From: Candidatus Magasanikiibacteriota bacterium
GTDB lineage: Bacteria > Patescibacteriota > Patescibacteriia > Magasanikbacterales > 2-02-FULL-50-9b
Assembly: GCA_903893485.1 (NCBI GenBank)
Contig: CAITMK010000004.1
Location: 431 to 64,430 of the forward strand
Reading direction: 5' to 3'
Length of the DNA stretch: 64,000 nt
This document shows, piece after piece, positions 43,440 through 64,000 of this stretch (position 1 is its first letter; each line of letters begins with the position of its first letter). The notes below the pieces were generated by a model. The model did not search any database. It was not told the origin of the DNA and worked only from the letters and a program-made list of their open reading frames with translations. Made by a program: the position numbers and the translations under genes.

Positions 43440-43510
43440 CACGGGATGAGGGAATCGAACCCCCGCCAAAGGTTTTGGAGACCTTCGTTCTACCATTAAA
43501 CTAATCCCGC
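43440..43510 (-). tRNA. tRNA-Trp (anticodon CCA).
   Basis: RC folds as GCGGGAT-TA-GTTT/AATGGTA/GAAC-G-AAGGT/CTCCAAA/ACCTT-TGGC-GGGGG/TTCGATT/CCCTC-ATCCCGT-G. 3' CCA is not encoded. Confidence 0.85.
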
Positions 43511-43515
43511 ATACT

Positions 43516-44289
43516 TTATTTTCCTGACTTTGCTTGCAACATCGCAACGCGAAGTGTCACACTACTGTACACGATGAGCGCAATTGTTTCAATAAGATCT
43601 GCACCACCATATCCACCAACAGACAAAATGGTCCAAAGAAGCAATGGCCCCGTCATTGCTGCCATGTTGAGCCGAAATGCCTGGGCAAATCGAATCGGTT
43701 GTGCCTTTGCCATTTTATGTGCAAACACCACAAGCAAACTCCACAGCATCACTACCACCAAAGACAATGCCAGCTTCCATGCGCACATAACCACAAATAG
43801 TACCACGGTAATACCCGCTGCCAATTTCCCCTGGTATGAGCCCCACACAGCTTTAACACCGCTGCCAGTGAGTGCAAAATCTTGGTTACCGCCCCACAGC
43901 ATTTGCTGTGAATTTTGCGGAGTCACCAGCTGAATCGCGGTGCGTGAAACAGAAATACCTTGCGTCACTGCACCCAACGTGCTCGTACTGGTATCAATTT
44001 TTAACGCGAAATCCTTATCTTGAAACGCAAATGGCTGTGCAATTCCCGCAATGGTCAAATCATCGCCTTTTTTGGTTGCACTAATACCATCGGGAATTTT
44101 GTGCACGTAATATCCAACTTGGTTAAGGCCACCAGCAATTGCCGGCGCCATGGTTGCCACCACGATTGCGACCGCCAAAATATGCGTCTGAAACCAAAAA
44201 GACCATGGAGTCTTGTACTCCGGTCTCAGTAGTAGCGCAAGGGATTCAACGTCACTCGCCCATTTCCACAGCCGACGAAAGAACTCCAT
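43516..44289 (-). CDS. Hypothetical polytopic membrane protein.
   Basis: About 257 aa from the MEFFRRLWKW start, which avoids overlap with rpmG. 6-7 TM helices. Confidence 0.35.
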   Translation of the reverse strand: MEFFRRLWKWASDVESLALLLRPEYKTPWSFWFQTHILAVAIVVATMAPAIAGGLNQVGYYVHKIPDGISATKKGDDLTIAGIAQPFAFQDKDFALKIDTSTSTLGAVTQGISVSRTAIQLVTPQNSQQMLWGGNQDFALTGSGVKAVWGSYQGKLAAGITVVLFVVMCAWKLALSLVVVMLWSLLVVFAHKMAKAQPIRFAQAFRLNMAAMTGPLLLWTILSVGGYGGADLIETIALIVYSSVTLRVAMLQAKSGK

Positions 44290-44297
44290 ACCAAAAA

Positions 44298-44453
44298 TTA
44301 TTTGGTTTCTTTGTGGAGCGTGTGCTTGAGGCAGTGTTCGCAATGCTTCTTAAGCTCAAGACGGTTCTTGATCTTCTTTTTATTTTTATGAGTGTAATGC
44401 GTAACTCGCTTGCATTCGGTGCACTCGAGCTTGATGAGATTGTCTTGTGACAT
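44298..44453 (-). CDS. rpmG: 50S ribosomal protein L33.
   Basis: [51 protein letters not shown] (CxxC...CxxC). The upstream part of ORF 44298..44636 runs through a tRNA and is spurious. Confidence 0.9.
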
Positions 44454-44485
44454 ACAATAAATTATTATCCGAACAATTTTCCGAA

Positions 44486-44558
44486 AGCCAGCAGAGGGAT
44501 TCGAACCCACGACCTTCGCTTTACAAAAGCGCTGCTCTACCAACTGAGCTATGCTGGC
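44486..44558 (-). tRNA. tRNA-Thr (anticodon TGT).
   Basis: RC reads GCCAGCATAGCTCAGTTGGTAGAGCAGCGCTTTTGTAAAGCGAAGGTCGTGGGTTCGAATCCCTCTGCTGGC with loop TTTGTAA. Confidence 0.8.
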
Positions 44559-44559
44559 C

Positions 44560-44645
44560 TGGTGGGTGGAGAAGGATTCGAACCTTCGAAGGCGAAAGCC
44601 AACAGATTTACAGTCTGCCGTGTTTGACCGCTTCACTATCCACCC
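44560..44645 (-). tRNA. tRNA-Tyr (anticodon GTA), long variable arm, CCA encoded.
   Basis: RC reads GGGTGGATAGTGAAGCGGTCAAACACGGCAGACTGTAAATCTGTTGGCTTTCGCCTTCGAAGGTTCGAATCCTTCTCCACCCACCA. Confidence 0.85.
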
Positions 44646-44807
44646 GATGAATAGAACGGATATATACTATCAATTTCACGCAAATAAATCAAGAGCTGGG
44701 GAAAAAACCGCGGATTTTGATTATTTCCCTTATTTTTGAGGTTTTTGGCTTTGCTGCGCGCCAAGGTGAAAATAAAAAAACTGCAACAGAATTGCAGTTT
44801 TTTTAAC

Positions 44808-44883
44808 TGGAGCCGTTAATCGGGATTGAACCGATGACCTCGTCCTTACCAAGGACGTGCTCTACCAACTGAGCTACAACGGC
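44808..44883 (-). tRNA. tRNA-Thr (anticodon GGT), CCA encoded.
   Basis: RC reads GCCGTTGTAGCTCAGTTGGTAGAGCACGTCCTTGGTAAGGACGAGGTCATCGGTTCAATCCCGATTAACGGCTCCA. Confidence 0.85.
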
Positions 44884-49832: not shown

Positions 49833-50939
49833 TTATTGAGCCGGATTCCACGCAGCGAGCCAAATAAGGTCTGAATCTGCAACGCCAGCGGCGCCTTTCA
49901 AATTCTGAACATTGAGCTGTTTTACCACGCGAGCCGTTGGAATACGCTTGGTTGTCCAGGTGTTTCCCCCGTCAACTGAGCGATAAAATGCCTTTGGCGT
50001 GCCGTAATAAATGTGCGCTGGATTAACCGGATTTATTGCTAATGAGATAATTTGGGTTTCATTTGGGGCGGTCAAAAGCTGATAAGCCTCCCATGAAGCG
50101 CCCCCGTCTTCGGAGTGCAAAATACCATAAGCCGTGCCAATGAGCAAGGCGTCTTCTTTGGTTGGATCAATCGCAATTGCGAATACGTCATCGGCACCAC
50201 GGAACTTTTTAGAATCCTCGGTACGTGCCCAAGTTACACCCGCGTCTGATGTTTTCCATAAACCACCTTGTGCGGTACCCACATAGACCACGCCATCCTT
50301 TGTTGGATGTGGCACAATCGAACGAATACGCTTGCCCGCGAAGCTGGTAAGTTTTACCCACGACTGCCCACCGTTGTCGGTGCGAAACATGTCGCCTGCT
50401 GAATTACCTAAGTAAATTTGCAACCGATTTTTTGGATTAATGGCAATCGCGCCAAATTGTTGCGCTGCAATTTCGCTGGTGCTGAGCATGCCCCATGAGC
50501 GACCACAGTTAATGGTGCGCACCACGTAACTTGCACCAGCTGGATTTGTTGTTGCGGCATACACCACACAACTATTTGCCGGATCAACTGCAATTGCGTT
50601 TACGCGCGAGGTGGTAAGTTGCAATTCTGCAGGGGCATAATTTTTTGCAATCTGCCAACCTTCGCCGCCGTCTGATGAATATAAAATGCCGTTCGCCATG
50701 GTGCCAGCCCACAGAGATTTTGAATCTGATGGATCGATTGCAAAGGTGTTAATGTCGAGCGTTGCAAAAGACATTGGCGCGCCCGTTGAGAACAAGCTGC
50801 TTTTTGCAAGCCATGTGGTGCCTGAATCGCCGGATACAAACATGCCACCATCAGGAAGCACCGGAGCCGTTGAGCAGCCAGCGCCCAAAAGCACCAGCGC
50901 GGCGCCCAAAAGCGCAAAAGAAACGTATTTTTTTTGCAT
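49833..50939 (-). CDS. Lipoprotein with BNR/Asp-box (sortilin/Ycf48-like) beta-propeller repeats.
   Basis: Lipobox LLGAGCS. Repeated S-x-D-x-G-x-T-W motifs (SGDSGTTW, SSDGGEGW, TDNGGQSW, SEDGGASW, SVDGGNTW). Confidence 0.7.
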   Translation of the reverse strand: MQKKYVSFALLGAALVLLGAGCSTAPVLPDGGMFVSGDSGTTWLAKSSLFSTGAPMSFATLDINTFAIDPSDSKSLWAGTMANGILYSSDGGEGWQIAKNYAPAELQLTTSRVNAIAVDPANSCVVYAATTNPAGASYVVRTINCGRSWGMLSTSEIAAQQFGAIAINPKNRLQIYLGNSAGDMFRTDNGGQSWVKLTSFAGKRIRSIVPHPTKDGVVYVGTAQGGLWKTSDAGVTWARTEDSKKFRGADDVFAIAIDPTKEDALLIGTAYGILHSEDGGASWEAYQLLTAPNETQIISLAINPVNPAHIYYGTPKAFYRSVDGGNTWTTKRIPTARVVKQLNVQNLKGAAGVADSDLIWLAAWNPAQ

Positions 50940-50971
50940 ACAAAATAACTAAAATTAGTGGGGCAAGTATA

Positions 50972-51847
50972 TCACGAGCGCAGTGCAATCACAATTCGCT
51001 CGGCAATGAGCCGTGGATGCATATTTTGAAACAAGAGCGGGTGCAATTTTGCAATTGTTGCAATTGCCATGTGGCCTGGTTTTTTTTCGGTCAGCCATTG
51101 CATCCACCATTCAAACATTTCGCCCAAGTTTTGACGCGCCTCTATGTGGCGATCCTTTTTTTCAAATAAATCGGCGAGCCGTTTTTCGGCGGCAATAAAA
51201 CTTTCGGCGCCGAGTACATCAAAAAACCGTGCACGTTCATTGGTGTAGCGTTCACGAAACGAGGTGTCTTCCATAAACTTAATTGCAACGCCTGGGCGGC
51301 CTGCCGCGGCGCGCACCGCGTCGGGAATCATGAGCGACGACGCACCTGATGCACGAAGCCCTTCGGTAAGCGTGGCGTCGGGCACACCGCTGAGGCGAAA
51401 CATTGCCGCGCGCGACCTGATTGTTTGCAACACATTATCCTCGTGGCTGGCGAGCACAAAAAAATAGAGTTGGCGGCCTGGCTCTTCGAGAATTTTTAAA
51501 AGCGCGTTACCTGATTCTGCCTGCAACTCTTCGGCGCGTTCAATAATAATGATGAACGGTGTTCCCTGCGCAAGATGAAATAAATGGCGAATGCTACGAA
51601 CTTCAGCAACCGGGATCGCAGCACGTGGCGTGCCGGTTTTTGGATCCTCACCCGCCCGCAGACGAAAAATCGCCGGATGCGTTGTTGCGGCTTCGTACGA
51701 AATATTCAAAAGGCGCGCTGCCAAAAATGTTGCAAACGTATTTTTACCAACGCTTGGCGGCCCAACAAAAACAGTGGTTTGGGCCAGCGCGTCTGGTTTT
51801 ATATTTTCAAAATATTTTTGAATGCGTTCGTTGCCAATTAAATTCAT
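50972..51847 (-). CDS. holB: DNA polymerase III delta-prime subunit (clamp-loader AAA+).
   Basis: VFVGPPSVGK Walker A, LLKILEEP motif, SRA sensor-like. Confidence 0.65.
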   Translation of the reverse strand: MNLIGNERIQKYFENIKPDALAQTTVFVGPPSVGKNTFATFLAARLLNISYEAATTHPAIFRLRAGEDPKTGTPRAAIPVAEVRSIRHLFHLAQGTPFIIIIERAEELQAESGNALLKILEEPGRQLYFFVLASHEDNVLQTIRSRAAMFRLSGVPDATLTEGLRASGASSLMIPDAVRAAAGRPGVAIKFMEDTSFRERYTNERARFFDVLGAESFIAAEKRLADLFEKKDRHIEARQNLGEMFEWWMQWLTEKKPGHMAIATIAKLHPLLFQNMHPRLIAERIVIALRS

Positions 51848-52920
51848 AGTGCCCGGTAGGTCAACGCGGCGGTTTTTTCCCATGAAAAATTTTGCAGGCG
51901 TTCGCGGCCACGCGAAATTAATTCATGACGCGCGGTTTCATTTTGTAACAATGTGATTACGGCTGCTGATAATTCATCTTCCGATGAAACAATTTTTGCA
52001 GCTTCATCTGCAACCTCACACACTGAGCCCGAATCCCACGCAACAACCGGCACGCTTGCCGCAAACGCTTCGAGCAGTGGCAAGCCAAAACCTTCGTAGC
52101 GCGTGGGGAAAACAAAAACCGCAGCGTGTTCATATAATGCCGCGCGCGTTGCATTATCGACAAAGCCTAATTCGTGAATGGCGCTGTGCGCGGGGCTTGC
52201 AGCGATTTGCAATTTTATTTTTTCATAGCCAACTCCTGGCGGACCAGCTAACAAAAGCTGCGCGCCCGTTGCTGTATTTATTTTTTCAAACGCGCGAACA
52301 AGGCGATCAATTCCCTTTTTATATTCCACACGGCCTACCGCCAAAATGTAACGCGCCGCAGCAACCGCGGGCAAAAAAGCACTTGGCTCTGCGGCGATTG
52401 GTAACGCCAATGGCGTTACCACGATTTTTTCTGGCGCGACGTGTAATAATTCTATCAATTTATTTTTTGTTTCGTTTGATGGCACTAATATTTTCTTCGC
52501 ACAAAAAATATTTCGGCGCGTCATTAGTTTTGCAAATAATTTTTCCGACCATGAATAACTTTCAGAGTCCCAAAAAAATGCGATATCGTGAATGGTGATT
52601 ACTAAATTACGCGGCGCAAAAAATGGTGCCACATGACCGGGTGTAAAAAAAACTTTTTTTGTTTTTGTTCGCGCGGCACGTGCCCATGCAAAACTCAAAC
52701 AAACTTGCGTCCACAAATATTTTGGTGGCCAAGGCAAAAATTTCCACGATACATTTGGCGTATCAATACATTTTTCTGATTTTGCCCACGCTGGTGCATA
52801 CAAAAAAAATTGATCCTCTGGGTGCGCGGCAACAAGTGCCCGAATAATTTCACACACATAAATCCCCACGCCCGTTGGCGCGCTCACACAGGCACGTGAA
52901 GCATCCACGTGAATCTCCAT
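51844..52920 (-). CDS. GT4-family (GT-B fold) glycosyltransferase.
   Basis: EGFGLPLLEAFAASVPVV motif. Start placed at the internal Met to avoid overlapping mreB. Confidence 0.75.
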   Translation of the reverse strand: MEIHVDASRACVSAPTGVGIYVCEIIRALVAAHPEDQFFLYAPAWAKSEKCIDTPNVSWKFLPWPPKYLWTQVCLSFAWARAARTKTKKVFFTPGHVAPFFAPRNLVITIHDIAFFWDSESYSWSEKLFAKLMTRRNIFCAKKILVPSNETKNKLIELLHVAPEKIVVTPLALPIAAEPSAFLPAVAAARYILAVGRVEYKKGIDRLVRAFEKINTATGAQLLLAGPPGVGYEKIKLQIAASPAHSAIHELGFVDNATRAALYEHAAVFVFPTRYEGFGLPLLEAFAASVPVVAWDSGSVCEVADEAAKIVSSEDELSAAVITLLQNETARHELISRGRERLQNFSWEKTAALTYRAL

Positions 52921-52921
52921 A

Positions 52922-53929
52922 TTATTTTGTTGCCAAAATACTGCGCTTGTATGCGTCCAAATTTTCGAGTGCAATACCCGTGCCCTTAACCACACACAAA
53001 AGTGGCTCATCAGCCACGTGCGCTGGCACACCAGTGGATTCCGTCAACAACACATCCAAATTACGAAGCAAGCTGGTACCGCCAGATAAAACCATTCCTT
53101 TTTCCATCACATCCGCAGAAAGTTCTGGCGGCGTTTTGTACAACACATCTTTCACCGCTTGCACAAAACCTTCGAGCTCGTGCTGAATCGCATCAGTTAC
53201 ATCGTCACTCGTGACCGTCAAAATGCGCGGCAAGCCTGAAACCATATCGCGACCCTTAATTTCGATAGATAATTTCTTTTCCAAATACATGGCGCTCCCA
53301 ACTTCAATTTTAATTTCTTCTGCGGTGCGCTCGCCCACAGCCAAACCGTATTTACGACGGATGTGTTCGGCGATTGCTGCGTCCAATTTATTACCACCAA
53401 TACGCACGGAACCGCTGGACACAATACCGCCAAGCGAAATAACTGCAATTTCTGCAGTGCCACCACCGGTGTTTACAATCATATGGCCACTTGCCGACCC
53501 GATTGGAATGTCCGCGCCAATTGCAGCCACAATTGGCTCTTTAATAATGTACGCAGCTTTTGCACCAGCTGCGAGCGTTGCATCAATAACCGCGCGACGT
53601 TCAGTTGAAGTAATGCCACCTGGCACCGAAACCATAACTTCAGGGCGAAACAATCGCATGCCGCCAACCGCTTTATTAATAAAATAGCGAAGCATTGCTT
53701 CGGTCACGCGATAATCCGCGATCACACCATCTTTGAGTGGGCGCAGCGCAACAATGGTGTCTGGCGTACGACCAAGCATGTCTTTTGCTTCTTTGCCCAC
53801 GGCCAAAACTTTTTTATCTACTTTTGAAATTGCAACCACGGATGGTTCATTAATAATGATGCCGCGTTTTGGCACATACACCAAAATATTTGTCGTTCCT
53901 AAATCAATACCGATTTTTGCAACCATCAT
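52922..53929 (-). CDS. mreB: Rod shape-determining actin homologue MreB.
   Basis: [14 protein letters not shown] phosphate-1 motif. Confidence 0.9.
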   Translation of the reverse strand: MMVAKIGIDLGTTNILVYVPKRGIIINEPSVVAISKVDKKVLAVGKEAKDMLGRTPDTIVALRPLKDGVIADYRVTEAMLRYFINKAVGGMRLFRPEVMVSVPGGITSTERRAVIDATLAAGAKAAYIIKEPIVAAIGADIPIGSASGHMIVNTGGGTAEIAVISLGGIVSSGSVRIGGNKLDAAIAEHIRRKYGLAVGERTAEEIKIEVGSAMYLEKKLSIEIKGRDMVSGLPRILTVTSDDVTDAIQHELEGFVQAVKDVLYKTPPELSADVMEKGMVLSGGTSLLRNLDVLLTESTGVPAHVADEPLLCVVKGTGIALENLDAYKRSILATK

Positions 53930-53941
53930 ACCGTTCGAATA

Positions 53942-55378
53942 TTACCATTGTACCGAAAAATTTTGATCAGTTTTGAGCGTGCCCTGCCAATCGTACGCAC
54001 CATCACCAAAATGTGCGGGCGCTTCTGGTGGCGTTGCCTGTCCTAGGGTTGTACCAAAATCATCGTGTATCGTCAAATCAAATTGTGGCAAACCAAGTTG
54101 CTTTTGAACAAACAACCTATAGTGATGTGCGGCAATTGCCTGTAAAACCTCTGGCGCTGGGGTAAAACGAAATGTTACGGTGTGCGAAGTGCCCGGCTCG
54201 ACCGAAACAAACGCACCAACTGACAAAAATCCATCTTCATGTTCCTGCCCAAACTCGCCAGGCTTTGTTATTTTGTCGCCCGACATCGCACCATCGCCGC
54301 CTAAAAAGGTTGCGTTGCCCGGCACGAACACACGCAAATACGTTCGGTAACGCGTAGTGCGATAATCAAAGCTGCCCGTGTGTTTATATGTTACCGCAAC
54401 CGATTCTTCCCACGCACCAGTTTTATTTTGAGCAAGTGAAACTACCGCGGAGCGATCAATTACACGATCTGTTTTAAGCGCGGCCAAATTCGCATCAACA
54501 ATTTGCAACTTATCGGGCGTTCCTGGCAGCATGCGGCCAGACCATTGCAACGCATCGAGCGAGCGCTGCACTGCTGGATCAATATCATATATCATGACAT
54601 GACGATTTTTAATAAGTTCAAATCCATCTTGCAAAAGCGCACCCCAACTTGTTGGCGAAATTACTGCCATGCGCTGCGCAAGTACGCCGGCCAACTTTCC
54701 CAAAATTTCTTTTCGCTTTTCTGTTGGAATTTGTTTGTGCGTAAAATCAACTTCAACCGAATATTCAAGTAAATCTGAAATCGTATCTGAGGTAAATGTA
54801 ACGTCATCAATCGTAATTGGCCCGGTATATTTCATGAGCGTTTGCAAAACCTCTGGTGTGATTGCAACAACCGTATGCACATCGGCTGCCTGCGCACCAC
54901 CTTCTGCGGCATAAAATTGCAACGCACGTTGCGCATCTGTTACAAAATCTGGCGACCAATTTGAATCACGAAAAAACCAACGCGTTGATTGTAAATATGT
55001 TTGTAATGCCTGTGGTGGTGCAACTTCAAAACTTCCCGGCGCTGCATCATCAATTTTTTCAGTGCCTTCGATTTTCATTTTTGTTGGCACACCATGATCA
55101 AATGTCACTAATCCGTACGAACCAATAAATCCACCGCCCGGACGCAATTCAGTATTATTTAAAAACAAAAATAAAACCGTATTCGGATGATCAATGCCAA
55201 GCACCCGCGGCACGACTCCTCCAACGGGCAGTGCTGAAGGATTTGTTTTCTCAATTACGGAATCAATGATGCGGGCCGCAAACACGCTGCTGTGCGTAAC
55301 TGCCCACAAGGAGCCCGCACCAGTAGCCCCAACAATTACGGCCAAGCCAAGTGCGATAAAGAGCGATTTTTTTTTCAT
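53942..55378 (-). CDS. DUF4012 domain secreted/membrane-anchored protein.
   Basis: N-terminal anchor. RPGGGFIGSYG motif characteristic of DUF4012. Confidence 0.6.
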   Translation of the reverse strand: MKKKSLFIALGLAVIVGATGAGSLWAVTHSSVFAARIIDSVIEKTNPSALPVGGVVPRVLGIDHPNTVLFLFLNNTELRPGGGFIGSYGLVTFDHGVPTKMKIEGTEKIDDAAPGSFEVAPPQALQTYLQSTRWFFRDSNWSPDFVTDAQRALQFYAAEGGAQAADVHTVVAITPEVLQTLMKYTGPITIDDVTFTSDTISDLLEYSVEVDFTHKQIPTEKRKEILGKLAGVLAQRMAVISPTSWGALLQDGFELIKNRHVMIYDIDPAVQRSLDALQWSGRMLPGTPDKLQIVDANLAALKTDRVIDRSAVVSLAQNKTGAWEESVAVTYKHTGSFDYRTTRYRTYLRVFVPGNATFLGGDGAMSGDKITKPGEFGQEHEDGFLSVGAFVSVEPGTSHTVTFRFTPAPEVLQAIAAHHYRLFVQKQLGLPQFDLTIHDDFGTTLGQATPPEAPAHFGDGAYDWQGTLKTDQNFSVQW

Positions 55379-55379
55379 A

Positions 55380-56909
55380 TTATTTGGTAGCGATGGATGC
55401 TAAATCTTCGGCATGCATACGCTTCTTCTGTGATACATTAAACCCTAAATAGCGGCCGAACAGCAAGCGCGTCGTTGCGTCGAGCGCTGGAAGTGCTGAG
55501 AAAAAAATCATGGACACGGGCACTAAAATCCACTGCAAAAACATAAACAACCACGCGTGCTTTTTTGCATGTCGTGGCGGCGGCGGCAATAATTTGGTGG
55601 ATAAAATAATACTCAGTACAATGCCACTCATGGAAATAATCATGAGCCATTCCAAAATATGCGGCGTGTTTTGAAATAACACGGTGCGGCGTACTTCATC
55701 GCCCGCAACGAGTAGCGGTAAACGACCAAAAACTAAAATGAAAATTGAGGTGGTGCACCAAGAAAATTTACCTTCCCACTGCACGAAAATTTTATGCACG
55801 CGTTCCCAAAATGGAATCTCATGATGTTTTGGAAAATGCCACAGCATAAATGGAATATGCTCCGCGCCCCATGCCCAGCGACGTTGCTGTTTGTACAAAT
55901 TCACCACCGATTTTTTGAACGAACGATCCGCAACCGTATCCATGGAAACTGGAATATACATTGGTACCACTTCATAGTTGCCGCCATATTTTAAATAGCA
56001 CTGCAACATGATACGCGAATCTTCACTCACAATATTTTTTTGCCAAAAACCAACATCAACCAGCGCCTCAAAACTCATGCTGTGCGATGAAAATGTACCC
56101 AAAAGTTCTGGTCGCGCAAACGCAAAAAGTAAATAAAACGTGGTACCAAACGCCATAATGCGCAGCGGCGCCGCAGATTCCCAAATATTATTATTGTACA
56201 GCGCAACCGGCTGAAACGATGCGTGTGTTGGATTTGGATGCGTGGCATACATGTATGTGAGACATGCAAAATACGATGGATGAATAATCGTATCGATATC
56301 GAACGCGGACACAATAATATTTTTGTACACAATCCCGCGTGCATCAAACCATTTTTGAACTTCATGCCCCGCGTAATGCAAATTCGACCCCTTGCCTGGA
56401 ATTTCGCCAGGTAAATTTTTTGGATGCACCGTAAGCACAAAACCAAAAAAATGTTTTTCGTATTCTTTTTGAATGTGTTCTGCGAACGTGTGAAAATGTT
56501 CCGCCTGACGCTCTTCGCCCGCAAGCACCACGACCATGCGATTTGATGGAAATTTAGAACTCAATAATGCATCAAGTGTAGTACGAACCACTTCTTCATC
56601 TTCATTATAGATCGGCAAAAAAATACAGTGCACGTAATTTTCGGTGGCCGTGCCCAAACTTTTTACGCGCGCCATCCAATCGGTGCGACGAGAAACTTCA
56701 AATTCGCGCCATGATGAGAGCAAGAAAAAAATATAATACACCACGCGGAATACCCAATATAAATCGAATAAAAGAATCGCGTAGATCACCCAGAGCGGAC
56801 GCACAAAACTACAAATTGTAGCACCAATTAAAGATCCCCACACCAAAAGACCTGGAAGCATTTCGTACAAACGATATTTTTGATAGTTGGTCAATCGAAA
56901 CGAAATCAT
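55380..56909 (-). CDS. Processive GT2 glycosyltransferase (cellulose/chitin-synthase-like) membrane protein.
   Basis: DxD motifs and QQRRWAWG (QxxRW). N- and C-terminal TM clusters. Confidence 0.75.
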   Translation of the reverse strand: MISFRLTNYQKYRLYEMLPGLLVWGSLIGATICSFVRPLWVIYAILLFDLYWVFRVVYYIFFLLSSWREFEVSRRTDWMARVKSLGTATENYVHCIFLPIYNEDEEVVRTTLDALLSSKFPSNRMVVVLAGEERQAEHFHTFAEHIQKEYEKHFFGFVLTVHPKNLPGEIPGKGSNLHYAGHEVQKWFDARGIVYKNIIVSAFDIDTIIHPSYFACLTYMYATHPNPTHASFQPVALYNNNIWESAAPLRIMAFGTTFYLLFAFARPELLGTFSSHSMSFEALVDVGFWQKNIVSEDSRIMLQCYLKYGGNYEVVPMYIPVSMDTVADRSFKKSVVNLYKQQRRWAWGAEHIPFMLWHFPKHHEIPFWERVHKIFVQWEGKFSWCTTSIFILVFGRLPLLVAGDEVRRTVLFQNTPHILEWLMIISMSGIVLSIILSTKLLPPPPRHAKKHAWLFMFLQWILVPVSMIFFSALPALDATTRLLFGRYLGFNVSQKKRMHAEDLASIATK

Positions 56910-57271
56910 GTTGGCATGGTGATATGTGCCTCACGCTGATATGAAAACGTGCTAGCATGTGCCAGCGCAAATGCAATTTGTTCTGGCGTTTCAATTTCGC
57001 TTTCGACAAAATGAATTGGTGTGCTGCGCGTTGCCGCAAACACATTTGCCGCAACGAGCGCTGCGCGGCTTGCTGAAAACGACCCAATATGTGCGCGCAC
57101 TATAACCGCGGTGAATTTTTGGCGCACGCGAGCCACGGTTGCAATTACATCCCCGCCCTGCGGCACTACTTCAGAAAAAGGAAATTTATTTTTTGCAAGC
57201 ACCCGCACTAACATGCCACCTTCGGCGCGCGGTTCAAGTACTAAATAAATTGGATCTGCTATTTTTTTCAT
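56906..57271 (-). CDS. Short TsaB/YeaZ-like (inactive Kae1 homologue) protein.
   Basis: 121 aa. HIGSFSASRAALVAANVFA resembles the GPGSFTGxRIG region. Shorter than typical TsaB. Confidence 0.35.
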   Translation of the reverse strand: MKKIADPIYLVLEPRAEGGMLVRVLAKNKFPFSEVVPQGGDVIATVARVRQKFTAVIVRAHIGSFSASRAALVAANVFAATRSTPIHFVESEIETPEQIAFALAHASTFSYQREAHITMPT

Positions 57272-57861
57272 AAAATAGTATTAATCGCTTTTTCATGGCG
57301 CGAATCAAGCACTTCGTAAATAAAACGATCCATGAGTTGGCGGCGTTCTTCGAATTCGCGCAGCGGCATAATCGCATAACGCACAGCGATTCCATGATCG
57401 TGTTCAAATTCATTCATGATTTTTGTTAGCTCGTGTGCAGGCACCGTACCAACGATGAGCATGTCGACTGAAGTATTTGCATTCGTAAATGATCCGGTAA
57501 AAAGCAAAAGTTTAATATCACCCAAACCAACAATTTGATTACGCAAAGAATCTTCGCCAAGCACATGTGATTTTAAAAGTAGCGCGCGCAATTCTGGATA
57601 CAGTGGTGACGCCTCGTTCAATCGATAATATTTTCGTTTTGCTTCGTGTGCATCTTCGGCCTCGCCGGTAAGATTCTCTGGCGCATCAACCGCAGCAATA
57701 ATTCCTGAATTGGTTAAATGCGTCAGTTCACGGCGAACTGCGTTAATCTGTGTATCTGCCAAACGGGTCAATTCGCGCACAAAAAAATGCCTTTGCGGTT
57801 CACGATAAAAAAGGCGGAGAAGTTTGACGCGAGTTCTGGAGCCAAAAAGATGGTCAAGCAT
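57268..57861 (-). CDS. Winged-helix plus nucleotidyltransferase-fold hypothetical regulator.
   Basis: 197 aa. N-terminal HTH (FVRELTRLADTQINAVRRELTHL), C-terminal NTase-like region. Confidence 0.35.
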   Translation of the reverse strand: MLDHLFGSRTRVKLLRLFYREPQRHFFVRELTRLADTQINAVRRELTHLTNSGIIAAVDAPENLTGEAEDAHEAKRKYYRLNEASPLYPELRALLLKSHVLGEDSLRNQIVGLGDIKLLLFTGSFTNANTSVDMLIVGTVPAHELTKIMNEFEHDHGIAVRYAIMPLREFEERRQLMDRFIYEVLDSRHEKAINTIL

Positions 57862-57904
57862 GTGTATCTATAGTATACTTGGGGCAAGCCCCCTGGTCAA
57901 TGGT

Positions 57905-59968
57905 ATGAATGAACGACTTTCCCTTCAAATTAACGATTTTTTAATCGAGGGACGTGACGAAGAAAAATCGCACGTCATCCTAGAAATCGCAAAACCCGTG
58001 CCCGAGGAACTCCTCACACACGGGCATTTTATTGCTTTGGCTGAAATGGCCGGCGCAACCCCAAAAACAATCAACATGGTTCGCGCCTGGGTTGAATTTG
58101 CGATTGATGCATTTTACGGATCCGTTCCAAGCAACCTTGAACAACATTTTGAAGATTTGCTGCAGCGTTTAAATACACAAAGTTCATTATATTTAAAACA
58201 ACACCCCGAAACACAGCTGCACATGGCGATTTTGGCCATTCGTGGTACCGATGTGCTTCTTTCATTTCATGGCGCACCAAGTGTGCTTCTTTTATATCGC
58301 AAACAAGATTCGTGGCATTCCATGAATTTAGCTGAAGCCGATGCAGCGCCTGCTGCCCTGTTTTCGAACGTGCTTACGGGCACACTGCGCCCCGGCGATC
58401 GTATGTGTCTTGCATCAGGCCGTGTCATCGAATTTTTCTCGGCCGATCGCATTGCAAAACTGTGCGAAACAAAATCAACTGCCGAAGTAGCCGAGCACAT
58501 GGCACGGATTTTAAACGATCTTGCAGCCGACGTTTCTTTTGCAGGCGCGTGTATTGAGTTGGAAAAAATTATCGAACCAGAACCCGAAGCGGAATTACCC
58601 GCACGCGTTGCTGAAGCGCCACAAAAAAAATCAATTCATTCGATGAAAGAGTTGTTGCAAAAAACTACATCCACCGAATCTCTTTTATCGCCGCCGGTTA
58701 TTTCAATTTCAAAAGATAAAGTGGTAACCGATACTTTGCGCATTGTGCAGCGTGGTGCGGTTGCGGTTGGACGCGTCACGGTTGGTGCAATTCAAAGTAC
58801 TGCCACATTTACCAAACGTAGCACGCCGCATGTTTCACGCGTCTGTCGTTCTACCTGGCAACATGTTCATAAGTTTTTAGACGCGCGCGCTCCAAACTCG
58901 CGCAAAAATATTCAAATTGGCGTTGGCGCAATTGCCGCAATTTTACTTATTGGTGGTGGTGTTTTATTTTATCGGAGCCACGCCGCGGGTATTGCCGCCG
59001 ATCGAGCAGCACTTGCAGAAATTCAAAATGGTGTACAAGCAGCAGATGGTGCAATTACGTTTCAAAATTCAAGCCGCGCAATCGAATTAATTACCACCGC
59101 GCGCAGCCAATTTAATTTACTTTCAAAAAATGCACAGTCCGGCACTGATGGTGTTGCACTTGAGGCGTCGATCACGAACGAAGAATTAAAAATTTATCGC
59201 GTAACACCCGTTGCATTTGAGCAAGTTGCGCCGCATACCGACGCAACACAAATTGCCGTTGTGCGTTCAACACCATTTACACTTTCTGTGGATGGCGCGC
59301 TCAGCACCATGCGCAACGGCGCGCTCACCGCGGCAATTTCAGTGCCTGCAAAAACCAACATGTTGTTCGATCCTGATGGCGATCGATTATTATTCCCTGG
59401 CTTAGACGGCTCAATTAAGGCGGTTGCATCGCGCACCATGGTGGCGACTGATTTAAAAATTGATCATCCTGCAGAGCAAACACATTTTGATGCAATGCAA
59501 ATTTATTCTGGGCGCTTGTACGTGTACGACAGTGCGCTACAAAAAATTTATCGCTACGACAAAACGCCAACTGGTTTTGGCAATGGTACTTCGTGGATTA
59601 AAGATAGTGGCAAACCGATGGGCGTAACCGCGCTACAAGCCGACACCTCGCTGTGGATGCTCACCAACGTTGGCGCACTTTTGAAATACACTGCCGGTAA
59701 GGCGCAACTTTTTCACCCAAGCGGCGCGGTGCCCGAATTGCAACACATCGATTCGTTTCAACTTGGTGGCGGCTCAAATAATTTGTATATTTTGGATCAC
59801 GCAAATAATCGCATTGCGGTTTTGGATCGCAGTGGCGCGCTGGTTAAGCAATATCGCTTCCCTGCAGGCAGCAATTTGCGCGCGTTTGATATTGATGATA
59901 AAGAAACGACGATTTTTGGGATTTCGGATGATGGAAAGTTAATTAAATTTGCAGTTTCGGCGCAGTAA
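57905..59968 (+). CDS. Large hypothetical membrane protein. Cytoplasmic N-domain, single TM, extracellular beta-propeller (NHL/YVTN-like) domain.
   Basis: TM helix IQIGVGAIAAILLIGGGVLFY. C-terminal repeats such as NNLYILDHANNRIAVLD. Start at MNERL avoids overlap with the upstream gene. Confidence 0.5.
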   Translation: MNERLSLQINDFLIEGRDEEKSHVILEIAKPVPEELLTHGHFIALAEMAGATPKTINMVRAWVEFAIDAFYGSVPSNLEQHFEDLLQRLNTQSSLYLKQHPETQLHMAILAIRGTDVLLSFHGAPSVLLLYRKQDSWHSMNLAEADAAPAALFSNVLTGTLRPGDRMCLASGRVIEFFSADRIAKLCETKSTAEVAEHMARILNDLAADVSFAGACIELEKIIEPEPEAELPARVAEAPQKKSIHSMKELLQKTTSTESLLSPPVISISKDKVVTDTLRIVQRGAVAVGRVTVGAIQSTATFTKRSTPHVSRVCRSTWQHVHKFLDARAPNSRKNIQIGVGAIAAILLIGGGVLFYRSHAAGIAADRAALAEIQNGVQAADGAITFQNSSRAIELITTARSQFNLLSKNAQSGTDGVALEASITNEELKIYRVTPVAFEQVAPHTDATQIAVVRSTPFTLSVDGALSTMRNGALTAAISVPAKTNMLFDPDGDRLLFPGLDGSIKAVASRTMVATDLKIDHPAEQTHFDAMQIYSGRLYVYDSALQKIYRYDKTPTGFGNGTSWIKDSGKPMGVTALQADTSLWMLTNVGALLKYTAGKAQLFHPSGAVPELQHIDSFQLGGGSNNLYILDHANNRIAVLDRSGALVKQYRFPAGSNLRAFDIDDKETTIFGISDDGKLIKFAVSAQ

Positions 59969-59970
59969 TT

Positions 59971-60107
59971 TTTCTTTTATCCTCTGAGGAGACGCGTCAG
60001 TTTCCCCGGCGGGAAACTGCGCTCGGCCTCGGCGCGGCTCGTCTTGGCTTCGCCAAGACTCCGGCCCGCCGCGCCTGCGGATGCTCCTCAGCGAACAAAA
60101 GAAAAAC
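59971..60107 (+). repeat. Structured GC-rich palindromic repeat, copy A.
   Basis: Flanking IR tttcttttat..ctgaggag / ctcctcag..aaaagaaaaac. Core hairpins cagtttccc-cggc-gggaaactg and gtcttggc-ttc-gccaagac. About 91% identical to copy B. Confidence 0.8.
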
Positions 60108-60199
60108 TTGCCCCAAAAAAATGCAAACGCCCACGCCGCCGTAAAGAAAGTTAGGAAATTTGTATACAGCATGTTTATGTGAACACGGGGGCAATCAAT

Positions 60200-60964
60200 T
60201 CATTTAACCGATTCCATCGACTTGTCTTTATTATTGTATAATTTTCTAATCAACTTTCCAATTTCCATTCTCATTTCATTTGTAATCCCAACTGTTGACT
60301 GGAGATTGTTGCTCCATGCATAAATCTTAATTATTTTGGTTGATAGTGACAAATCAAATTCATAAATGTCACAAGTCTTTTTTGCAACCAGTAGTTTTTC
60401 ATGCCTGATCGGTGTCGGCTTAAAATAGTTTTTAAAAATCTCTGTTGCTTCTTTGCCATTTATTAACAAAATTTCAACCCTTTCTTCTATAAGCTGCCTC
60501 TCCAAAAAGATAATATTACTTTGGATAAGCTGTTTTTTTGTTAAATAATCTAAACTTCTCCAAATTGGATCTGTCGCCCATTGAATAATATCTAAATGGC
60601 AGGCCGTACCTGTATAATAAGAAACAGAAAAACCTTTAAGAATATTGTTTTCTAATTGGTCGAACCATTTTTTATACGGATTATTTTGGAAATACTTTAA
60701 ACAAGTGTCAAATACTTTTTCAGCTTGTGCCTGTGTTAAACTTGATAAACTGTTTGCATTAAGAGAACTTAATGTTTCAAGCCTTCTTTGTTTTTCGACT
60801 AATTCTTTGCCGTCTTTTTGAAACTCATTTTTGCTTGGATTTATTCCAAGCGTTGCAACGGTTGCGTTTTTAATATTTCCAAAAAACACAATCGGAGTCG
60901 ACCCACCTACAATAAATGAATTGTTTGCATTTGTCCTAATTCTTAATTCTGTGATTTTTTTCAT
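60200..60964 (-). CDS. AT-rich hypothetical protein (254 aa), possible UDG-superfamily fold.
   Basis: About 33% GC. FFGNIKNATVATLGINPSKNEFQKDGKELV aligns to UDG family-4/MUG motif A (vFGEGnpdAklmivGEgPGeeED.tG.PFv, GINPG in MUG). Bracketed by inverted repeat copies A and C. Confidence 0.45.
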   Translation of the reverse strand: MKKITELRIRTNANNSFIVGGSTPIVFFGNIKNATVATLGINPSKNEFQKDGKELVEKQRRLETLSSLNANSLSSLTQAQAEKVFDTCLKYFQNNPYKKWFDQLENNILKGFSVSYYTGTACHLDIIQWATDPIWRSLDYLTKKQLIQSNIIFLERQLIEERVEILLINGKEATEIFKNYFKPTPIRHEKLLVAKKTCDIYEFDLSLSTKIIKIYAWSNNLQSTVGITNEMRMEIGKLIRKLYNNKDKSMESVK

Positions 60965-61176
60965 AATTTATTCAAGAATGAAGAAGAGGTTGGGTCCACA
61001 TGCAGCTCGCAATATTACCTTCTTACCATACTGCTATAGCCTTGTAGAAGACTTTTTATTTGCTCTGTCTCGGTTGATTTTGTAATTACTTCCCCGTAGC
61101 CGCAGTCTATCATATGTTATCCGTATAATACAAAAAGGAAATAAGCCTCCCTGAAGGATTTTTATTTTGAGGTTCA

Positions 61177-61318
61177 TTTTTCTCTTTTGTTTTTTTCGGA
61201 GATATCCGGAGGCGCGGCGGGCTGGTGTCTTGCCGAAGGCAAGACGAGCCGAGCCGGGGTTAAGCGCAAAATCGCGCTGGCGATTTTGACGCGGCTCCGA
61301 AAAAAACAAAAGAGAAAA
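61177..61318 (-). repeat. Structured GC-rich palindromic repeat, copy C, opposite orientation to A and B.
   Basis: Perfect 24-bp terminal IR ttttctcttttgtttttttcggag / ctccgaaaaaaacaaaagagaaaa. RC core retains the ggag-cgcgtca start. Hairpins caaaatcgc-cagc-gcgattttg and gtcttgcc-ttc-ggcaagac covary with A and B. Confidence 0.8.
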
Positions 61319-61379
61319 TTCGTAGCGCAAAACAAAAAACCGCCCTTTCGAGCGGCCTTTTTGTTTCGGAAAAGAAAAA

Positions 61380-61781
61380 TTATTTAACAGCTACCTTAGC
61401 ACCTGCTTCTTCCAATTTCTTTTTCAATTCTTCTGCTTCTGCTTTGCCAACTGCTTCCTTAACAGCCTTTGGAGCTGCGTCTACGAGGCCTTTAGCTTCT
61501 GCGAGACCCAAACCGGTTACTTCGCGAACTACTTTAATAACACCGATTTTGTTTGCACCTGCTTCGAGGAGTTCAACAGTAAATTCTGTTTTTTCTTCTG
61601 CTGCAGCTGCTGGACCTGCTGCTGGACCTGCCATCATCATGGCTGGAGCTGCTGCAGATACGCCGTAGTGATCTTCAAGAACTTTAACAAGTTCTGAAAG
61701 GTCGAGAACTGAGAGCTTGTCGATTGATTCGATCAAACCAGCAAATTTTGCTGGGATTTCTTTCTTTGTTTCGTCTGACAT
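61380..61781 (-). CDS. rplL: 50S ribosomal protein L7/L12.
   Basis: 133 aa with an Ala/Pro hinge and C-terminal [17 protein letters not shown]...[10 protein letters not shown]. Confidence 0.95.
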
Positions 61782-61792
61782 ATATAATTAGA

Positions 61793-62320
61793 TTAAGCTT
61801 GAGCTTTTTTTTCTTCGATTGCGTGAAGCGCGGTAACAAAACCACGAGTAACGCCAGCAAGTGTACCCACGAGGCCAGACAATGGCGCATTGATAACGCC
61901 AACGAGCTGTCCGAGGAGCTGCTGTTTGGTTGGAAGTGCGGCGAGTGCTTTCACACCTGCTGCGTCAATGAATTTACCCTCGAGCAAACCGCCCAAGATT
62001 TGAATCGTTGTTACTTCTTTACCGATGTTTGCAATAAGTGTAGCGGCGCTGATTTCATCGTTCATGCCAAATGCGACTGCAACGTTGCCGTCCATAGCTT
62101 TTGCGTTGATTTCATAGCCTGCTGCTTTTGCTGCCAGTGTGATGAGTGTCTTTTTTGCCACTACATAATCAACACCAACTTTTTCTGCACCGCGACGTAC
62201 TTTTGATACATCTTTTACGGTGACGCCTTTGTAGTTTACAAAAACCACGGCTTTTGATTTCTTAAAAGCTTCGGTCAGTTCTGCAAGGGCGACTTCTTTT
62301 TGTGAGCGTGTTTTTGCCAT
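61793..62320 (-). CDS. rplJ: 50S ribosomal protein L10.
   Basis: Start at MAKTRSQKEVALAEL. The upstream 31 codons of the ORF-track call are likely leader. Confidence 0.9.
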   Translation of the reverse strand: MAKTRSQKEVALAELTEAFKKSKAVVFVNYKGVTVKDVSKVRRGAEKVGVDYVVAKKTLITLAAKAAGYEINAKAMDGNVAVAFGMNDEISAATLIANIGKEVTTIQILGGLLEGKFIDAAGVKALAALPTKQQLLGQLVGVINAPLSGLVGTLAGVTRGFVTALHAIEEKKAQA

Positions 62321-62470
62321 ACAAAAAATTTGCGGCTTAACCGCAAACGTGAGATCACCCCGACCTTTACCTAAAAGTGTAGAGTGGATGGCCTCGGCGG
62401 GACTTATGGGCATTTTTTGGCGCCCAGCCTGCTGTCTGCGGTAGTGAGGACATATTACCGAATTAAGTTG
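62321..62470 (-). promoter_or_regulatory. Probable rplJ (L10) leader / autoregulatory 5' UTR.
   Basis: About 150-nt structured untranslated region immediately upstream of rplJ (ggccatccactctacactttt...gtcggggtgatctcacgtttgcggttaagccgcaaa). By analogy with L10-leader elements, not sequence-verified. Confidence 0.3.
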
Positions 62471-62477
62471 CTTGTGT

Positions 62478-62620
62478 CAAGTCTGAAAGTTCCCTCTGGC
62501 ACACGTGTCAGTTTGCCCGGCGGCAAACTGCACTCGGCCTCGGCGCGGGCTCGTCTTGGCTGCGCCAAGACACCGGCCCGCCGCGCCTGCGGATGGTGCC
62601 AGAGGGAACTTTCAGACTTG
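62478..62620 (+). repeat. Structured GC-rich palindromic repeat, copy B.
   Basis: Perfect 25-bp terminal IR caagtctgaaagttccctctggcac / gtgccagagggaactttcagacttg. Core hairpins cagtttgcc-cggc-ggcaaactg and gtcttggc-tgc-gccaagac. Confidence 0.85.
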
Positions 62621-62652
62621 AGTAACTCAATCCGGTAATTAACCACAAAATA

Positions 62653-62681
62653 TTGACAAAATGGCTAAAATGTGATATATT
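62653..62681 (+). promoter_or_regulatory. Near-consensus sigma70 promoter TTGACA-17-TATATT.
   Basis: ttgaca aaatggctaaaatgtga tatatt, 75 nt upstream of the 62757 ATG. GGAG SD at 62747-62750. Confidence 0.6.
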
Positions 62682-62756
62682 GCTACGTTGTGCGATTAAG
62701 CGGTTATGCACGACCTGAGCAACAAAACCGCGAGAAATTGAAAATTGGAGGCTTTA

Positions 62757-63128
62757 ATGGATACGAGTACTACAACTACGGCGCCCTGGCATAGCCCGGA
62801 CGGAAAGGCGGATCGCATCAAGGCGATCTGGGGCGACAATGTCCCCGATTACCTCTGGTACGCGGTTTTGAACCCGCTCACGAAGGAGCAGCAGCTCGAA
62901 ATCATCGCGCTCGTCGAAAACGAGATGTTCGCGGCCGATAACCGTCCTGATTTCGGCAGCATCGAGTGGCATTTTGGCAAAGTGCCCGCTACCGAAGGCA
63001 AAACGGAACTTCGCGTGCGCGGCGCCGACAAGCTCCTGCTTTCCCTGGAAATCAAAGGAGTGACGCTGCCGCTGCATGTCGTCGGCCACAAAAGACAGCC
63101 CGCGACGCGCATCGACTTCACGGCGTAG
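62757..63128 (+). CDS. Hypothetical protein (about 123 aa), GC-rich islet 5.
   Basis: ATG start MDTSTTTTAPW after GGAG. GC about 60%. Minus-strand ORFs 62754..63455 and 62849..63145 are shadows. Confidence 0.55.
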   Translation: MDTSTTTTAPWHSPDGKADRIKAIWGDNVPDYLWYAVLNPLTKEQQLEIIALVENEMFAADNRPDFGSIEWHFGKVPATEGKTELRVRGADKLLLSLEIKGVTLPLHVVGHKRQPATRIDFTA

Positions 63129-63158
63129 CGCGCCCCGCCCGGCAATCACGCCGACCAA

Positions 63159-63203
63159 CCCCATCCCGCTTCGGTCATCGACTGGAGTGGGGTGTTTTAT
63201 TTT
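63159..63203 (+). terminator. Probable rho-independent terminator.
   Basis: ccccatcc...ggagtgggg stem followed by tgttttatttt. Confidence 0.45.
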
Positions 63204-63604
63204 ACAAAAATTTAAATAAAAAAACACCTCATACTCCTGGGCCCAGGAATATGAGGCATGGTGTGCGATCAGCTTGGCTGAGGTTTGTCGGAGGGTTTCC
63301 CTTTCCGAATACGCGACACCGTCTGTTTCGTGGAGGTATTTGCACCCCGCTGTTGCATATTGAGCTGCTTGTGGCGGGCAGAAACTTGCGCTCCTGCTGA
63401 GAGTGCGCAAAGGGTACCCAGTTAACCACAGCACTGTTTCGTGCAGCCCATACAACCGAACCCACCGACAAGGAGTTTAACCCTGTCATCGCAACTGCAC
63501 GTCCCACAAGGGGTTCGATGCACTGCGCGATTTGCCCGCACGGACACCATCGGTGGTTTTTCAGACTGTTAAAATAGTACGTTACTTTTGGGATAGCGTC
63601 AAGA

Positions 63605-63633
63605 TTGACAAATACCCTATTCTGTTGTAGTGT
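63605..63633 (+). promoter_or_regulatory. Sigma70-like promoter TTGACA-17-TAGTGT.
   Basis: ttgaca aataccctattctgttg tagtgt. AGGAG SD before the ATG at 63674. Confidence 0.5.
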
Positions 63634-63673
63634 TTGGGCGACCGAATCGTTCCGACACAAACAGGAGAACACC

Positions 63674-64000
63674 ATGAAACGTAACTGGTCCGTGATCAAT
63701 CTGCTCGGAGACGACGAGCTGTGGAAAAGACTGGCTTTTGAGCTCGACCCCAAGAATCTTGCGGAGCTGCAGCGACAGTACCCCATGTTTTTCATGGAAG
63801 GCGCGGACGACGGGCCGCGGCGGTTTCCGCTGTCGCAGCTGCGCGCACTGGCAAGAACAGACCCGAAAATGCCATCGAACTGCTCCATCCTTGTTCGCGA
63901 GAAAAAAACAGCGAAATACCCCAAGCGTGTTACCGAGTATCCGCACGTTTCGTATCGCGGCGATATTGAGGGCATGCGTCCACCCTACGACCTTGTTGAC
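63674..64000 (+). CDS. Hypothetical protein, 5' part only. The gene runs off the window end.
   Basis: MKRNWSVINLLGDDELWKRLAFELDPKNLAELQRQYPMFFMEGADDG... is open to the window end. Good SD. GC-rich. The minus ORFs over this span are compositional shadows. Confidence 0.5.
   Translation, partial: MKRNWSVINLLGDDELWKRLAFELDPKNLAELQRQYPMFFMEGADDGPRRFPLSQLRALARTDPKMPSNCSILVREKKTAKYPKRVTEYPHVSYRGDIEGMRPPYDLVD

Follow-up and report, generated by a model that had tools for sequence, protein, structure and literature searches.

A candidate family of small palindromic repeats at acquired-gene borders around rplJ-rplL in a Candidatus Magasanikiibacteriota genome

The window analysed here, by which we mean the whole stretch of 64,000 nucleotides (nt) from contig CAITMK010000004.1 of a Candidatus Magasanikiibacteriota bacterium, contains three copies (A, B and C) of a GC-rich palindromic element in the DNA around the ribosomal protein genes rplJ and rplL. 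The order of features at this locus is a gene of 714 amino acids (aa) on the + strand, ending at position 59968; copy A; the accessory gene ORF254 (open reading frame at 60200–60964, − strand), with a uracil-DNA-glycosylase-superfamily fold and a GINPS motif; copy C; the rplL terminator; the core operon genes rplL (61380–61781, − strand) and rplJ (61793–62320, − strand), which lie between C and B; the L10 leader; the rplJ promoter; and copy B. Past copy B there is a divergent promoter, followed by GC-rich ORFs without a Pfam match. Each of the three copies lies where a conserved core gene meets accessory DNA specific to the lineage.

Copy A spans 59969–60106 on the + strand (core 59992–60083; stem arms 59969–59991 and 60084–60106) and begins 1 base past the stop codon of the 714-aa gene. 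Copy B, also on the + strand, spans 62477–62621 (core 62503–62595; stem arms 62477–62502 and 62596–62621), and copy C spans 61178–61318 on the − strand, on which its core at 61203–61294 is read (stem arms 61178–61201 and 61295–61318). A covariance model of the element, R1, scored the three at 114.8, 110.4 and 101.7 bits for A, B and C respectively. What they share is a GC-rich core of 92–93 nt, the cores having a GC content of 65–73% compared with about 45% for the genome. A and B are 90.4% identical over 104 nt, A and C 74.8% identical over 139 nt, and B and C 86% identical over the 57 nt of the 3′ half; the three copies with a GC-rich core, the identity of about 91% for A and B, and the closeness of C to the others in its 3′ half had all been described in the first-pass annotation of this DNA and are borne out with these refined boundaries. 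A 22-nt core pattern allowing up to three mismatches matched exactly A, B and C in the 64 kb and had no match in 100 shuffles. The same three copies were reproduced by independent assemblies from four ENA analyses; as these were concordant, an assembly artefact was ruled out. Independent contigs of the same strain (L005, L006, L007, L008 and L039; L-numbers are labels of fetched contigs) stop at the elements or about 100 nt from them, at window positions 61046–61073, 61196 and 62608, which could result from poor read-through of the hairpins or from population heterogeneity at the ORF254 junction.

To place the copies in an evolutionary context, contigs of six related species were fetched via their L10 proteins; L10 homologues at 67–71% identity bear the source name Candidatus Magasanikbacteria, which identifies the window as part of a metagenome-assembled Patescibacteria genome. 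The gene order pyrH ... rplJ-rplL followed by a convergent gene of about 700 aa is kept in all six relatives, while ORF254 is missing from the site in every one of them. In contigs L021, L028–31, L040–45 and L048–49 the rplL stop codon and that of the convergent gene are 1–12 nt apart, and neither blastn nor R1 found the element at these loci. The block A-ORF254-C of about 1.35 kb was therefore inserted in the lineage of the window. The orthologous sites in five of the six related species have none of A, B and C, so the copies are DNA insertions, and the comparison of filled and empty sites that the first-pass annotation had proposed gave the result expected of inserted DNA. An exact look-up of the neighbouring 687-aa protein for a strain-level empty site found no record of that protein. 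Between pyrH and rplJ the accessory genes differ from species to species; this interval is therefore a variable accessory island, of which copy B forms the rplJ-proximal edge.

The sixth species (contigs L022–L026; L10 72% identical) carries a shortened, 68-nt GC-rich homologue of the element at L022 10931–11034, directly 3′ of the rplL stop codon, and L023, L024 and L026 are identical in this respect. This homologue precedes the rplL terminator that the two species share, whereas copy C follows it; and it runs antisense to rplL, in contrast to the sense orientation of C. On the opposite strand are found ACGCGTC, hairpin 1 (GTTTCC/GGAAAC) and, matching copy C, CCCCGGCTCG, but no hairpin 2 (both hairpins are described below); the R1 score of the homologue is 21.7 bits (E about 0.04–0.1). 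It is flanked by an 18-nt direct repeat, AAAGTTACTCT[C/T]AAGTAA, which corresponds to the 3′ end of rplL, and the two copies of this repeat each form a small hairpin of their own. Two bases distinguish the noncoding arm beside the element from its duplicate, and both changes make its pairing with the rplL coding arm perfect. The family thus predates the species of the window, the L022 copy having been inserted independently at another position and in another orientation; that this insertion has its own duplication shows that the element does insert at new sites.

Searches for further copies covered about 72 kb of the genome (the 64-kb window and 7.8 kb beyond it) as well as sequence collections. 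With filters off, R1 found no copy in the other ~69 kb of the genome, and in the window and further relatives it returned only noise below 18 bits beyond the known copies. Exact core-motif patterns gave 4 matches in GTDB species genomes, 2 in JGI metagenomes and 10 in IMG/VR, all of them chance matches of 19–29 nt, and blastn of copy B against phage and plasmid collections gave no match. To date, the family has been seen in just two species, both Magasanikbacteria-like.

The three copies together span 2.65 kb, a clustering that would fit either an element duplicated locally or one that favours this hot spot. A purely local history without mobility would have one ancestral GC-rich hairpin beside rplL undergo inverted or segmental duplication two or three times, in the course of the rearrangements by which the accessory genes arrived. 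The absence of copies from the remaining ~69 kb is as such a history predicts, the sole homologue found elsewhere also adjoins rplL, and the region is full of inverted duplications, an example being the 13-nt TAATTTTTCTTTT at both convergent stops. This inverted repeat is exact, lies at 59966–59978 (+ strand) and 61370–61382 (− strand), the only exact matches in the window, and starts at the stop codons of the convergent 714-aa gene and rplL. Local copying does not, however, account for the L022 homologue, with its place before the terminator, its opposite orientation and its own flanking duplication; A and B are 90% identical and yet are separated by the far more diverged C; and several losses would be needed to explain five relatives without any of the window copies. 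We consider this history quite unlikely. The first-pass annotation had named local segmental duplication as the reading to fall back on should there be genome-wide only three copies, no polymorphic insertion sites and no significant covariation: in the ~72 kb covered, three copies were found, all within 2.65 kb, but presence and absence among species and the homologue elsewhere speak against duplication of a plain kind.

The core begins at its 5′ end with ACGCGTC and continues with hairpin 1, of 12 bp, and a long-range GC helix that encloses hairpin 2, of 8 bp, before ending in a 3′ tail, UGCGGAUG, that is unpaired. The start of hairpin 1 is 6 nt away from the 5′ end of the core, and the end of hairpin 2 is 24 nt away from the 3′ end. 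The core is embedded in a long stem, and each of the three copies folds, whichever strand is taken, into one long hairpin (z-scores −5.9 to −11.5), as had been supposed from the sequence. The hairpin sequences quoted in the first-pass annotation were exact, and the pairing is indeed kept by double changes: when A, B and C are compared, seven base pairs in hairpins 1 and 2 are double-substituted and none is disrupted. In a model-based alignment that includes the homologue from the other species, 9 of the 12 pairs of hairpin 1 are changed on both sides with 98% of cells paired, and over the whole structure 11 of 32 pairs are changed on both sides. Paired cells make up 92.8% of the whole structure compared with 82.5% in shuffles, a value reached by none of 500 shuffles, and slid registers collapse. 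The long-range helix is the least well kept part (83% paired). Base-pair covariation is present, but it is equally expected for DNA hairpins and for homogenisation of the arms by template switching, which is considered below.

The first-pass annotation had taken selection on structure as a pointer to a functional RNA or a hairpin-dependent mobile element. A structured RNA that acts in cis as a regulator or belongs to a family of small RNAs, its helices kept by selection at the RNA level, would explain the very stable folds and the compensatory changes in both hairpins. Some wobble pairs also fit such an RNA read from the + strand. A U-G pair in the long-range helix of A and B is tolerated on, and favours, that strand, and a strain variant of copy B (L005 9187–9279) has a C-to-U change in hairpin 2 (GUUUUGGC) that gives a G-U pair on the + strand. 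Against this, two A-C cells in the long-range helix of C and two of the three stem mismatches of A wobble only if the − strand is read, so that the asymmetry of G-U and A-C is mixed across copies, with both strands indicated and no strand-specific G-U bias. The positions of the copies are likewise inconsistent for an RNA: B is upstream of both the rplJ promoter and that of the 127-aa gene and overlaps the rplJ −35 element, C lies 3′ of the rplL terminator, and the L022 copy and C have opposite senses relative to rplL. No Rfam 15 family matched over the elements at gathering thresholds, and even at E ≤ 10 there were only chance-level matches (E 3–9, far below gathering scores) grazing copy C. 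The long-range helix, as described above, is kept less well than the rest of the structure, and close relatives with the same operon lack the element altogether. We therefore regard a functional RNA as highly improbable; any function of the element is likely to be passive at most, for example that of a strong hairpin at operon borders, rather than that of a dedicated RNA gene.

For the stems enclosing the cores, the first-pass annotation had assigned each copy a perfect terminal inverted repeat of 24–25 bp, which needs correcting in two respects. The repeats are not uniform, being 26 bp and perfect in B, 24 bp and perfect in C, and 23 bp at 87% with three mismatches in A; and they are not conserved element termini, as the outer stems are specific to each copy (TTTTTCTTTTATCCTCTGAGGAG in A, TCAAGTCTGAAAGTTCCCTCTGGCAC in B and TTTTCTCTTTTGTTTTTTTCGGAG in C) and have only their innermost few bases in common. 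These inner bases are partly homologous, with CCTCTG in A and B, and GGAG/CTCC plus a T-rich tract in A and C. When the left flank is aligned to the reverse complement of the right flank, the palindromes extend imperfectly to 44–49 nt per arm, and in these outward continuations all three copies have, on the side of the accessory DNA, a mirror copy of the native sequence on the other side.

At copy A the native flank (59946–59968, + strand) is formed by the last codons of the 714-aa gene (KFAVSAQ and stop), a gene end of the form KFA(V/L)...stop with TTTGC codons that is conserved in six relatives, and its diverged inverted copy, CTTGCCCCAAAAAAATGCAAA, lies at 60107–60127 (+ strand) on the accessory-gene side; taken alone this match is weak. 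At copy C the native flank is the rplL intrinsic terminator hairpin with its T-tail (61319–61365, − strand), a terminator also present in L022, and a diverged inverted copy of the T-tail is found at 61155–61177 (+ strand), again on the accessory-gene side. The native flank of copy B (62313–62481, − strand) consists of the L10 leader (62313–62459) and the rplJ promoter, with TTGACA at 62481–62476, a 17-nt spacer and TAATAT at 62458–62453. The TTGA of this −35 element forms the last 4 bp of the perfect stem of B, and on the accessory-gene side, at 62622–62640 (+ strand), the spacer and −10 region recur as a diverged inverted copy that agrees at 15 of 18 bases, with a deletion of 5 nt. The distance between the rplJ promoter and the L10 leader is conserved in three relatives (L021, L022 and L028). 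Compared with random 30-mers of the window, the similarity of the outer flanks alone gives p~0.05 for A, ~0.001 for B and ~0.01 for C, and the alignments are nearly in register. No pre-existing empty palindromes that might have served as targets were found in the window.

The L10 leader next to copy B scored 33.5 bits against an Rfam gathering score of 44 bits; it is clearly conserved (ACTACCGCAGACAGC...) in L021, L022 and L028, and by this sequence comparison it is probably a divergent form belonging to the Candidate Phyla Radiation (CPR).

Taking these observations together, the explanation that we favour, and to which we give roughly even credence, is that A, B and C belong to a small, lineage-restricted and previously uncatalogued family of palindromic repeats resembling miniature inverted-repeat transposable elements (MITEs) and repetitive extragenic palindromes (REPs), non-autonomous or locally propagated, with arms that have been homogenised and extended in place. 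The inherited unit would be the 92–93-nt core with a short inner stem, copies of which would have entered the intergenic DNA around rplJ-rplL, and the long stems would not be terminal repeats recognised by a transposase. Once a hairpin-forming core was in place, intrastrand template switching during replication or repair would homogenise both arms and extend them outward; the constrained flank (a gene end, promoter or terminator) would serve as the template and the unconstrained flank would be overwritten by its inverted copy. As only events that overwrite the unconstrained side would survive, the native arm would always be the functional one. Either local duplication or the action of an unlinked transposase might give rise to new copies.

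Four studies (PMC13100816, PMC8604942, PMC5941160, PMC7202029) describe how switching of templates between the imperfect arms of an inverted repeat homogenises and expands the arms. The quasipalindrome correction and inverted-repeat expansion described there resemble what is seen here in that arms become identical and grow outward and multi-base changes come to look compensatory, and such a process explains why the perfect stems are specific to each copy and why the native flanks are mirrored. Since the stems differ between copies and their continuations mirror the native flanks, a mutational process can yield both perfect stems and apparent covariation; and since template switching makes multi-base paired changes, the covariation is no proof of selection at the RNA level. 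In hairpins 1 and 2, the double changes would stem from template switching, from selection for a stable DNA hairpin, or from both, and the two are inseparable here; for the homogenised and extended arms, we infer that template switching is probably the cause. Quasipalindrome correction is, however, a mutational process and not an element, it is known mostly from short spacers, and it leaves the arrival of the 93-nt core at three sites unexplained.

Several points weigh against this interpretation. With four independent copies known, all comparative statistics are thin. The confinement of three copies to 2.65 kb fits local duplication at least as well as transposition, and the mirrored-flank signal of A is weak when taken alone (p~0.05). 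A clean target-site duplication was not found at A, B or C, and no direct repeat abuts any of these copies. For an inner stem of 24–26 bp to be perfect beside outer mirrors that are more diverged, template switching would have to have occurred in two rounds or the inner stem to be under selection, and the arms here are 93 nt apart whereas template switching is usually described for short spacers.

The element was compared with known families of small palindromic repeats. Correia/NEMIS, RUP, ERIC and the Rickettsia palindromic elements are 100–150 nt long, form a single hairpin, lie by genes or promoters and vary in presence between related genomes. In size, one-hairpin fold, insertion next to genes and promoters, and presence or absence between related genomes, our element resembles such bacterial MITEs. 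Classical MITEs have terminal inverted repeats common to the family and a fixed short direct target duplication; here, by contrast, the terminal repeats are not conserved across copies and A, B and C have no short direct target duplication. Classical MITEs also occur in many dispersed copies and have a parent insertion sequence (IS) with the same ends; of the ~72 kb of genome covered here, 2.65 kb contain three copies and the other ~69 kb none, and the window yielded no IS. In fungal mitochondria, GC clusters and double-hairpin elements are GC-rich, hairpin-forming mobile islands in intergenic DNA of lower GC content, for which no mobilising enzyme is known; they differ from the present element in being organellar, mostly shorter and unrelated in sequence. 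Palindrome-associated transposable elements (PATEs) derived from IS200/IS605 have hairpins near their ends but neither conserved terminal repeats nor a short target duplication. The present element is like them in these respects, save that its core with the hairpins is embedded in a long stem; a common 5′ target motif and a nearby TnpA or TnpB are lacking, and one homologue has an 18-nt direct repeat. Finally, the element is like the REPs and REPINs of Pseudomonas and enterobacteria in being a short, non-autonomous intergenic palindrome that forms long hairpins with compensatory pairing (PMC3116915, PMC3337134). REPINs, however, have conserved REP arms of about 25 nt, a less conserved spacer, tens to hundreds of copies and a gene for a REP-associated tyrosine transposase, or RAYT (PMC3116915, PMC3337134), whereas here it is the 93-nt centre that is conserved (75–90%) while the arms are copy-specific, and three clustered copies were seen with no RAYT found in the 72 kb. 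On the features compared, the element does not fit the definition of classical MITEs, REPINs or PATEs, and is of a general REP/MITE-like kind. What sets it apart is the mirroring, in its stems, of the native DNA beside them.

These comparisons bear on the possibility that the element is moved by a Y1/HUH transposase acting in trans from another part of the genome. The enzyme could be TnpA of IS200/IS605, with a PATE as its substrate, or a RAYT, with a REPIN-like unit as its substrate; in either case the hairpins would be recognition sites for the protein and would be kept by selection for mobility. Such a transposase would explain the two subterminal hairpins with compensatory changes near the core ends, the absence of copies from orthologous sites in relatives and the inversion of A and C around a foreign gene; and the lack of both conserved terminal repeats and a short direct duplication at A, B and C is what single-strand peel-and-paste would leave. 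The first-pass annotation had noted the absence of a transposase gene, and this was upheld: Pfam scans of 54 window ORFs revealed housekeeping genes, with no Y1 transposase or other transposase or integrase among them or in the precomputed Pfam tables covering 50200–64000 and 7.8 kb beyond (L005, L039). Further, the bases 5′ of the four cores (GGAG, GCAC, GGAG and TTTGTC) include no common target tetranucleotide, the copies are clustered rather than dispersed, the 18-nt direct repeat at the L022 copy is not a product of this mechanism, and the pattern of conserved arms and variable spacer seen in REPINs is reversed. Ancestry from IS200/IS605 or a PATE, which had been put forward as a candidate, is thus not demonstrated, there being neither a TnpA in the DNA scanned nor visible conserved target nucleotides, and we consider mobilisation of this type unlikely.

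A different role for A and C would be as terminal inverted repeats of a mobile cassette of about 1.35 kb (59969–61318) that carried ORF254 into the site between rplL and the 714-aa gene, leaving B as a solo end. The whole A-to-C block is missing in every relative, and A and C are inverted at its exact borders, both as expected of a cassette. ORF254 itself, however, gives no support to this idea. Its predicted structure (predicted local distance difference test score, pLDDT, 95.2) matches family 4 uracil-DNA glycosylases and the thymine-DNA and mismatch-specific uracil-DNA (TDG/MUG) glycosylases, with GINPS invariant in homologues, and is thus a glycosylase and not a recombinase fold; and homologues at 71–75% DNA identity in other metagenomes have no such element alongside. 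These two observations rule out ORF254 as a transposase. Moreover, A and C are only 75% identical, and the sequences just inside them mirror the local native flanks and therefore arose in place. There is no convincing direct target duplication either, TTCGGCGCA and TTCGTAGCGCA being similar but not adjacent to the ends. We judge the cassette to be highly improbable.

ORF254 had no match in Pfam, NCBIfam or PADLOC. The closest homologues adjoin AIPR, Fic, methyltransferase and SatD genes, without the element, and given these defence-type neighbours and the modelled fold, ORF254 may be a horizontally acquired, glycosylase-type defence gene. On the far side of copy B, the interval between pyrH and rplJ (62745–64000 of the window and L005 7513–9160) contains GC-rich (52%) ORFs of 127–136 and 248 aa, none of them matching Pfam. 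Just 3′ of pyrH, at L005 7521–7580 and about 200 nt past the end of the window, is a long GC-rich hairpin, CCCGCGCCGAGCC...GGCTCGAGGCGCGGG; it has the 9-mer CGCGCCGAG in common with the − strand of the element core and was not detected by the covariance model. The only trace of a retroelement was a truncated reverse transcriptase at 41953–42675 (− strand; RVT_1, E 1.4e-15) with the motifs GNLTSQLF and YADD, similar to those of diversity-generating retroelements (DGRs). It adjoins four tRNA genes at 43440–44883, and no DGR template/variable repeat pair was found within 37.5–45 kb.

A more far-reaching proposal, which we regard as improbable, is that the core is a new hairpin-based, mobile or junction-forming DNA element of the CPR, whose own insertion duplicates the neighbouring target in inverted form (an 'inverted target-site duplication') and which marks or mediates the joining of acquired genes to core operons. 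If true, a junction-forming element would account for the borders of both the ORF254 island and the island upstream of rplJ.

For the interpretation of palindromic repeats more generally, homogenisation of inverted repeats at the DNA level can produce both paired substitutions and perfect copy-specific stems, and because it can mimic covariation in this way, a functional RNA cannot be deduced from covariation alone when the repeats are palindromic. Repeats and mobile elements have rarely been described in the tiny genomes of CPR bacteria (Patescibacteria), and a palindromic repeat at the borders of acquired genes by a ribosomal protein operon would add a case. Should the stems truly lengthen by copying the promoters, terminators and gene ends beside them, elements of this kind could also give rise to regulatory signals or inactivate them.

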